Source: Escherichia coli
GTDB lineage: Bacteria > Pseudomonadota > Gammaproteobacteria > Enterobacterales > Enterobacteriaceae
Direction: 5' to 3' (one strand)
DNA length: 64,000 nt
Assembly: GCF_001677475.2 (NCBI RefSeq)
Contig: NZ_CP015229.1
Shown here piece after piece: positions 9,451 through 9,466 of this stretch; position 1 is the stretch's first letter, and every line of letters starts with the position of its first letter. The notes beneath the pieces were generated by a model. It was not told the DNA's origin and ran no database searches. It worked only from the letters and a program-made list of their open reading frames with translations. Both the position numbers and the translations under genes were made by a program.

Positions 9451-9466
9451 TGGCACAGTTATTGTT
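9451..9466 (+). promoter_or_regulatory. weak candidate sigma54 promoter upstream of ygeW: TGGCACagttatTGTT
   Basis: Perfect -24 TGGCAC, but the -12 element is TTGT rather than TTGC; about 90 nt upstream of ygeW. Confidence 0.25.

Follow-up and report, generated by a model that had tools for sequence, protein, structure and literature searches.

The DNA analysed here, referred to as the window, is a stretch of 64,000 nucleotides from Escherichia coli (contig NZ_CP015229.1, assembly GCF_001677475.2) that carries operons of a purine/urate cluster. The ygeV and ygeW genes lie in divergent orientation and, since ygeV occupies 7302-9080 on the minus strand and ygeW begins at position 9557, they are separated by a spacer of 476 bp (9081-9556). 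The identities of both genes were assigned from the RefSeq annotation under the matches, as well as from a 99%-identical alignment to the spacer of K-12 MG1655. The main features of the region are the following:

7302 to 9080, minus strand: ygeV, a 592-codon ORF, divergent from ygeW.
9450 to 9466, plus strand: sigma-54 core promoter CTGGCACAGTTATTGTT, spanning -27 to -11, with GG at -25/-24 and GT at -13/-12.
9477, plus strand: predicted transcription start, 19 nt past the motif centre (9458), which leaves a leader of 80 nt before the ygeW ATG (9557).
9557 to 10747, plus strand: ygeW, a 396-codon ORF for a carbamoyltransferase, first gene of ygeW-ygeX-ygeY.
13288 to 13307, plus strand: terminator-like hairpin followed by TTTTT after ygeY, found by consensus scan; likely end of the ygeWXY unit.

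Positions 9451-9466 read TGGCACAGTTATTGTT, which together with the preceding C forms the 17-mer CTGGCACAGTTATTGTT. The GG at 9452-9453 and the GT at 9464-9465 are arranged as GG-N10-GT, the consensus being GG-N10-GC. Sigma-54 promoters are characterized by an rpoN-dependent start about 12 nt 3' of the -12 element. The element before ygeW exhibits the features of this class: TGGCAC with GG at -25/-24, a TTG ending at -13, and GG-N10-G spacing. A previous sequence-only reading of this DNA had described TGGCAC at -24 and TTGT at -12, in a motif ending 90 nt before the ygeW ATG within a 476-bp divergent spacer; both half-elements were read directly at 9451-9466, and the coordinates agreed. The start at 9477 was predicted with the rule of Bonocora et al. 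(2015; PMC4591121), i.e., 19 nt after the motif centre. Among 5426 complete E. coli genomes, the region was matched in 5181. The allele in the window is a minority one within the species, since only 119 of the 5426 genomes have its exact 45-mer.

The same element was described in K-12 by ChIP-seq as site OS30, with the motif CTGGCACACTTATTGTT on the plus strand, a peak centre at 3004190, ygeW as the downstream gene, and a predicted start 80 nt before ygeW (Bonocora et al. 2015, PLoS Genet, PMC4591121). This motif differs from CTGGCACAGTTATTGTT at one spacer base; OS30 and the element in the window share the locus, motif, strand, predicted start, and 80-nt distance, and nothing functional differs between them. 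OS30 was new in 2015, because the site had no EcoCyc flag. Moreover, binding of the RpoN holoenzyme in the ygeV/ygeW spacer was detected by genomic SELEX (Shimada et al. 2021), while a recent study found these genes to be without annotated transcription starts. The sigma-54-like element that had been proposed to serve ygeW thus corresponds to a published ChIP-seq site in a spacer bound by RpoN. The sigma-54 promoter of ygeW is real and not newly discovered: it has been in the literature since 2015, and the finding as stated repeats published knowledge. The same ChIP-seq study reported three further sites of the cluster, located in the window as follows:

3528 to 3544, plus strand: sister sigma-54 promoter of xdhA, CTGGCGTAAATCTTGCC (OS29).
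19086 to 19102, plus strand: sister sigma-54 promoter of ygfK, GTGGTGCGATTGTTGCT (OS31).
34093 to 34109, minus strand: sister sigma-54 site of ygfT, TATGCCCATTTATTGCA (OS32).

OS30 gave a weak ChIP signal, with a fold-above-threshold (FAT) of 3 versus 11 at xdhA and 26 at ygfK (PMC4591121). According to Bonocora et al., a bound site need not be a productive promoter and the productive subset is not known, many of the ChIP-bound sigma-54 sites of E. coli being intragenic (PMC4591121). These observations would fit a second reading, in which the element is a non-productive binding site, or even a chance match, with no regulatory role. Matches to the pattern are indeed expected by chance in 64 kb: with one mismatch allowed, TGGCAC-N5-TTGCW was found 2 times in the window versus 3.75 times expected per shuffled 64 kb, and the bare pattern match at ygeW is not remarkable as such.

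A weight matrix was built from the 17-mers of 130 ChIP-bound sigma-54 motifs (Bonocora 2015, Tables 1 and 2; PMC4591121), with the five sites of the purine/urate cluster itself omitted from the training. With this matrix, a check that the sequence-only reading had suggested, the ygeW element scored 14.87 bits, corresponding to the 61st percentile of the 130 training sites and thus within the range of bound sites. On both strands of the 64-kb window it ranked second, after 3528-3544 (xdhA) and before 19086-19102 (ygfK), and each of these top three hits lies just upstream of, and is directed into, operons of one cluster. Random sequence gave 1.4 hits per 64 kb at the score of the ygeW element, but only about 0.005 hits when the count is limited to the ygeW strand of the 476-nt spacer. 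A second TGGCAT in the spacer (9381-9386) was rejected as a sigma-54 site, its best register scoring -4.6 bits with the wrong spacing; it abuts the CRP-like site at 9392-9407 described below.

To describe the conservation of the element, we scanned for YgeW in one genome per species, which yielded 80 loci. Among the gamma- and betaproteobacterial loci, the best sigma-54 hit within 500 nt upstream was the same element in every one, and in nearly all of them it ended 65-110 nt before the ygeW ATG. The motif-anchored comparison comprised 47 sequences from Enterobacterales, Aeromonas, Vibrionaceae, Endozoicomonas, and Betaproteobacteria; TGGCA and TTG were identical in all of them (47 out of 47), within unrelated flanks. 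On the YgeW tree, these eight positions underwent 0 changes, versus 13-23 changes per flanking position. A lack of conservation in related genomes had been named by the sequence-only reading as a ground for refuting the element. The element withstood this check, with GG and TTG invariant across the 47 orthologous regions; as for the GT/GC dinucleotide, the G was invariant and the -12 base varied between T, A, and G. Outside these groups, the sequence TYGGCCCGGGnAAYGAA, located upstream of ygeW in Bacteroidales and Riflebacteria, was considered as a distant sigma-54 variant and rejected: it is coding sequence of the preceding gene, since its variation sits at third codon positions.

These data argue strongly against a non-productive site or a chance match. 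Eight key positions are invariant in 47 orthologues whose flanks are randomised, the position 65-110 nt before the ATG is held in nearly all orthologues, and the element is paired with the gene of an enhancer-binding protein and with a conserved upstream palindrome (see below). We consider this reading strongly disfavoured and give it the least weight of those discussed here, the element being far better explained as a promoter in use.

The -12 position of the element was variable. In the 47 sequences, this base was T in 21, A in 17, G in 9, and C in none, with at least 5 changes on the YgeW tree. The window has T at 9465 and so departs from the consensus C at -12, which does not exclude it from the class: C was found in 125 out of the 134 ChIP-bound E. 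coli sites, and the 9 sites without it include pspA and pspG. In a compilation of sigma-54 promoters, C was reported at -12 in 96% of cases. The fact that C was never observed at ygeW is weak evidence when taken alone, because a neutral site with five changes avoids C about 13% of the time, and the argument for a conserved non-C base rests on the contrast with ygfK. Other high-scoring sigma-54 hits in the ygeW loci were rejected as a control for the -12 base, being mostly chance-like intragenic hits, and ygfK orthologues were used. In the window and eight other genera, the ygfK promoter (about 70-95 nt before ygfK in the orthologous loci L083-L090) exhibited TTGCT or TTGCA in 9 out of 9 cases, while its -24 half was imperfect in all 9 (GGTG, GGCG, or GGCC). 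Thus, in the same genera and within one regulon, the ygeW promoter combines a perfect -24 half with a non-C base at -12, whereas the ygfK promoter combines an imperfect -24 half with a perfect -12 half.

On the sequences compared, the ygeW promoter has consistently kept a non-C base at -12, which is thus a conserved state and not a sign of decay and adds a modest new detail specific to this promoter. In the literature consulted, the C at -12 is described as restraining basal transcription, and activator-bypass sites as tending to lack it. The most likely effect of the T at -12 is a lower occupancy by the holoenzyme, a looser repressive fork-junction lock at -12, or both, which would tune the promoter rather than disable it. 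The low ChIP occupancy at ygeW fits with a weakened -12 contact. It is possible, although we hold it to be doubtful, that the C is missing from the ygeW promoter through long-standing selection and not through drift. If selected, the ygeW promoter would be a natural, evolutionarily maintained sigma-54 promoter with a loosened lock, which might keep the downstream enzymes available at a low basal level or make opening require both CRP and YgeV; within one regulon, tuning would then act on the -12 half of one promoter and on the -24 half of the other.

Between the core promoter and ygeV, the following site was observed:

9392 to 9407, no strand assigned: CRP-like site TGTGATCAACCCCACA, with one mismatch to TGTGA-N6-TCACA, centred at -77.5 from the predicted start.

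CRP mostly works on sigma-70 promoters, and its pairing with a sigma-54 promoter at a fixed spacing is uncommon. At ygeW, a match to TGTGA-N6-TCACA was found at a fixed offset from the promoter: with at most 2 mismatches, it recurred in Enterobacterales and Aeromonas at offsets between -76.5 and -78.5, and its key bases were invariant in alignment A2. The ygeV<>ygeW and ygfT<>ygfU spacers are both listed by CRP genomic SELEX, and a 2025 preprint describes a native Crp site in the ygeV-ygeW spacer and glucose repression of the uric-acid pathway. At some sigma-54 promoters, CRP is inhibitory according to at least part of the literature.

The distance from the conserved CRP-like site to the sigma-54 element downstream of it is only 45-60 bp, and CRP binds the spacer in vitro. 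Both observations would also suit a CRP-dependent sigma-70 promoter that mainly drives ygeW, the bound sigma-54 holoenzyme being a bystander or a modulating roadblock, in line with reports that some sigma-54 sites repress overlapping promoters. The hexamer GATAAT at 9443-9448 could act as its -10 element; however, it was not kept in other genera, and a consensus scan revealed no good sigma-70 promoter correctly spaced from the CRP site. Moreover, repressive sigma-54 sites are reported to retain the C at -12, which the ygeW element lacks, and productive use of sigma-54 is indicated by the invariance of the -24/-12 bases, by the activator gene in divergent orientation, and by the common enhancer palindrome. 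We therefore regard a mainly sigma-70-driven ygeW as improbable and favour a sigma-54 promoter at which CRP probably assists. A sigma-70 -35 element overlapping the -12 element (TTGTTA or TTGATT) was also considered and rejected, as no usable -10 element was present at the right spacing in the window.

The product of ygeV, a bacterial enhancer-binding protein, is intact, with a PAS domain, a Sigma54_activat domain (8.5e-71; AAA+, GAFTGA), and a Fis-type HTH_8 domain (1.4e-13), and ygeV adjoins ygeW in 38 orthologous loci. In 46 upstream regions, the hexamer TGATAA occurred 127 times, and the start-to-start distance between TATCA and TGATA was 8 in 32 cases, which defines a palindrome, TATCA-N3-TGATA. 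It was located 150-250 nt upstream of the ygeW core promoter in the upstream regions compared. When a palindrome matrix built from other species only was run on the window, 5 hits scored at least 14, versus 0.16 expected, and four of the five best hits were found in the regulatory regions of xdhA, ygeW, ygfK, and ygfT/uacT. The palindromes and the neighbouring conserved block are as follows (no strand assigned):

9214 to 9229: conserved block TGGAAGAGATATCACA beside site 1, CRP-like or a further TATCA half-site.
9234 to 9250: candidate YgeV site 1, TATATCAATATGAGAAT, score 18.0, 216 nt upstream of the core promoter.
9263 to 9279: candidate enhancer site 2, TTTATCAAACTGACGAG, with a weak score of 6.5, 29 bp downstream of site 1.
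3395 to 3411: palindrome of the xdhA promoter, score 14.2.
18903 to 18919: perfect palindrome TTTATCATAATGATAAG of the ygfK promoter, score 24.3.
34273 to 34289: palindrome AATATCAATATGAGAAA in the ygfT-uacT spacer, score 18.0.

The two ygeW palindromes of the window are degenerate, with TGAGA and TGACG half-sites. Site 1 recurred at the same offset across Enterobacteriaceae and formed a conserved block in alignment A2, in which the TTATCA and TG of site 2 were invariant, its TATCA being conserved at an offset of -185. Overall, the palindrome was present upstream of ygeW in 43 out of 46 regions (the window and 45 orthologous loci). A high-scoring palindrome was missing from three Erwinia/Pantoea orthologues among the 46 regions scanned, although the promoter was kept. 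Upstream of the ygfK promoter, the palindrome was observed at a distance of 142-195 nt in 8 out of 8 further genera. We found no published description of TATCA-N3-TGATA in a limited literature search.

Several arrangements of the palindrome were observed in addition. Every sigma-54 promoter of the cluster (ygfK, ygeW, ygfT/uacT, and xdhA) is preceded by a copy at a distance of 125-220 nt. Another, AATATCATCTTGATATC (17.9 bits), is located inside ygeX at 11079-11095 and recurs in place in Citrobacter, Kosakonia, and Serratia, and, in a weaker form, in another three genera; this copy may reflect the coding sequence by coincidence or represent a YgeV site within the operon. In three Aeromonas loci (L023, L024, and L041), the two genes are not divergent: ygeV precedes ygeW and both face the same way, with the sigma-54 promoter and the palindrome between them, and in L023 and L041 a canonical CTGGCACTGGTACTGCT is present upstream of ygeV in the opposite direction.

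As judged from its distribution, TATCA-N3-TGATA is probably the YgeV binding site. We propose YgeV as the activator of ygeW because of the ygeV-ygeW adjacency, the palindrome common to the cluster promoters, the YgeV expression module, which takes in these operons (Lamoureux et al.), and the lower ygfT expression in a ygeV mutant cited by the same authors. It could be argued that the sigma-54 promoter is genuine and that its activator is an enhancer-binding protein other than YgeV, since the link between YgeV and the palindrome is a candidate derived from sequence, and the literature also ties YgeV to indole signalling and virulence genes. The adjacency of the two genes in 38 loci, the single palindrome that recurs at every sigma-54 promoter of the cluster, and the reported dependence of ygfT expression on ygeV make another activator unlikely in our view, and YgeV is retained in the model below.

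The sequence-only reading had judged the spacer long enough for enhancer sites and a sigma-70 promoter of ygeV itself. Candidate enhancers were indeed found there, in the form of the TATCA-N3-TGATA palindromes; for the sigma-70 promoter, the spacer offered only a -10-like sequence at 9146-9154. The latter belongs to a block, ATGATAyTA, that was conserved and whose minus strand contains TAATAT. On the same side of the spacer lies the following repeat:

9173 to 9197, no strand assigned: perfect inverted repeat TGATAAAAA-N7-TTTTTATCA, on the ygeV side.

Its TTGATAAA was partly conserved in alignment A2. Both the repeat and the 9146-9154 block could be candidates for a ygeV promoter or for autoregulation.

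We also considered a PurR-type operator at 9345-9359 and rejected it, as chance alone would yield 5.9 matches to GCAAACGTTTGC with 2 mismatches in a window of this length. This sequence, GCCAAACGTTTTCGT, resembles the PurR/LacI-family operator core CAAACGTTT, is not significant alone, and was kept in Escherichia, Citrobacter, Klebsiella indica, Atlantibacter, and Trabulsiella, and not in other genera; a weaker relative, GTAAACGGTTGC, is located at 34437-34448, before uacT.

An RNA element in the ygeW leader was likewise rejected. There was no match to an Rfam family in the spacer or the leader, the 94-nt leader folded no better than its shuffles (z = -0.3), and RNAalifold gave no consensus structure for 17 leaders, a GCUG...CAGC 5' hairpin being visible by eye only. 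Two stretches of the leader were conserved: one at 9478-9515, where the predicted 5' end has (A)GCGCTG or GCTGTGA, able to pair with a CAGC or TCACAG further downstream, and GCC.GTCATTCCACTACC directly before the ribosome-binding site (9530-9552).

Further along the operon, the 57-nt ygeW-ygeX gap contains a GC-rich hairpin at 10754-10775, GGGCCGATCAGCTGGTCGGCCC, with a 9-bp stem and only a weak T tract, which may act as an attenuator within the operon or influence the stability of the RNA. In the ygfT-uacT region, the plus-strand sequence CTGGCACTCCACGAGCA (34397-34413) is found 70 nt ahead of the start codon of uacT (ATG at 34483), with the palindrome at 34273 located 124 nt upstream of it. 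This sequence shows the GG-N10-GC arrangement with no TT before the GC, scores 5.5 bits, and may be a weak sigma-54 promoter of the urate transporter gene uacT, a member of the YgeV module.

Overall, we consider it likely that the element is the core promoter for sigma-54 transcription of ygeW-ygeX-ygeY and that it is activated by YgeV with the assistance of CRP. The sigma-54 holoenzyme would recognise TGGCAC at -24 and TTG(T) at -12 (9450-9466) and form a closed complex. YgeV would bind the TATCA-N3-TGATA palindromes (9234-9279), about 210-240 bp upstream, and the intervening DNA would be looped, probably aided by a cAMP-CRP bend at -77.5. ATP hydrolysis by the AAA+ domain of YgeV would then open the promoter and lead to transcription from about 9477, the predicted transcript spanning ygeW, ygeX, and ygeY. 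In the anaerobic breakdown of uric acid, these genes are responsible for the ureido-cleaving and diaminopropionate steps; a role of ygeWXY in reductive urate degradation is described in a 2025 preprint. The model builds on the published binding of sigma-54 and CRP and on the observed motif score, conservation, common palindrome, and intact YgeV; from these we infer that YgeV activates ygeW, that CRP helps to form the loop, where transcription starts, and what the T at -12 does.

Related systems in E. coli exhibit several of these features. The PspF-dependent promoters of pspA (TTGGCACGCAAATTGTA) and pspG (TTGGCATGATTCTTGTA) have TTGT, with T at -12 as in ygeW, and are ChIP-bound and flagged as experimentally confirmed (PMC4591121). 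GT at -12 is compatible with function, since both are confirmed promoters; they differ from ygeW in having another activator and belonging to a membrane-stress regulon. The prpR-prpBCDE locus for propionate is arranged like ygeV-ygeW, with a divergent enhancer-binding-protein gene and catabolic operon and a sigma-54 site before prpB, and one CRP site in its spacer is listed as controlling both directions. In contrast to ygeW, it serves another pathway, its activator has another recognition sequence, and its -12 element is canonical (GTGGCACACCCCTTGCT). For the effect of the -12 base, the glnAp2 mutants of Wang, Guo, and Gralla (1999), in the account given within PMC4551910, indicate that replacing the C weakens the restraint on activator-independent transcription. 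These laboratory mutants of another promoter are the best available guide to the T at ygeW.

A sigma-54 activator of Clostridiales, DioR, was described as controlling homologues of ygeW-ygfK-ssnA-ygeY, dpaL (ygeX), and yqeB (Nie et al. 2019; PMC6615313). DioR is a different member of the activator family from YgeV, and its regulon was reconstructed in Firmicutes. Because of this regulon in Clostridiales (PMC6615313), sigma-54 control of the uric-acid pathway spans phyla.

To the published promoter, the present analysis adds its conservation across genera, the conserved non-consensus base at -12, a candidate YgeV enhancer, and a CRP site at a fixed position, which together are of modest interest. 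The ygeWXY genes are part of the anaerobic degradation of uric acid by gut bacteria, which is relevant to hyperuricaemia, and the pathway is being engineered into probiotic E. coli by replacing the ygeV-ygeW spacer (2025 preprint). For such engineering, as well as for the search for the inducing signal, it matters that the native promoter requires sigma-54 and probably also YgeV and CRP, and that its -12 element is conserved in a non-consensus form. The candidate YgeV site TATCA-N3-TGATA would provide a direct handle for defining the YgeV regulon.
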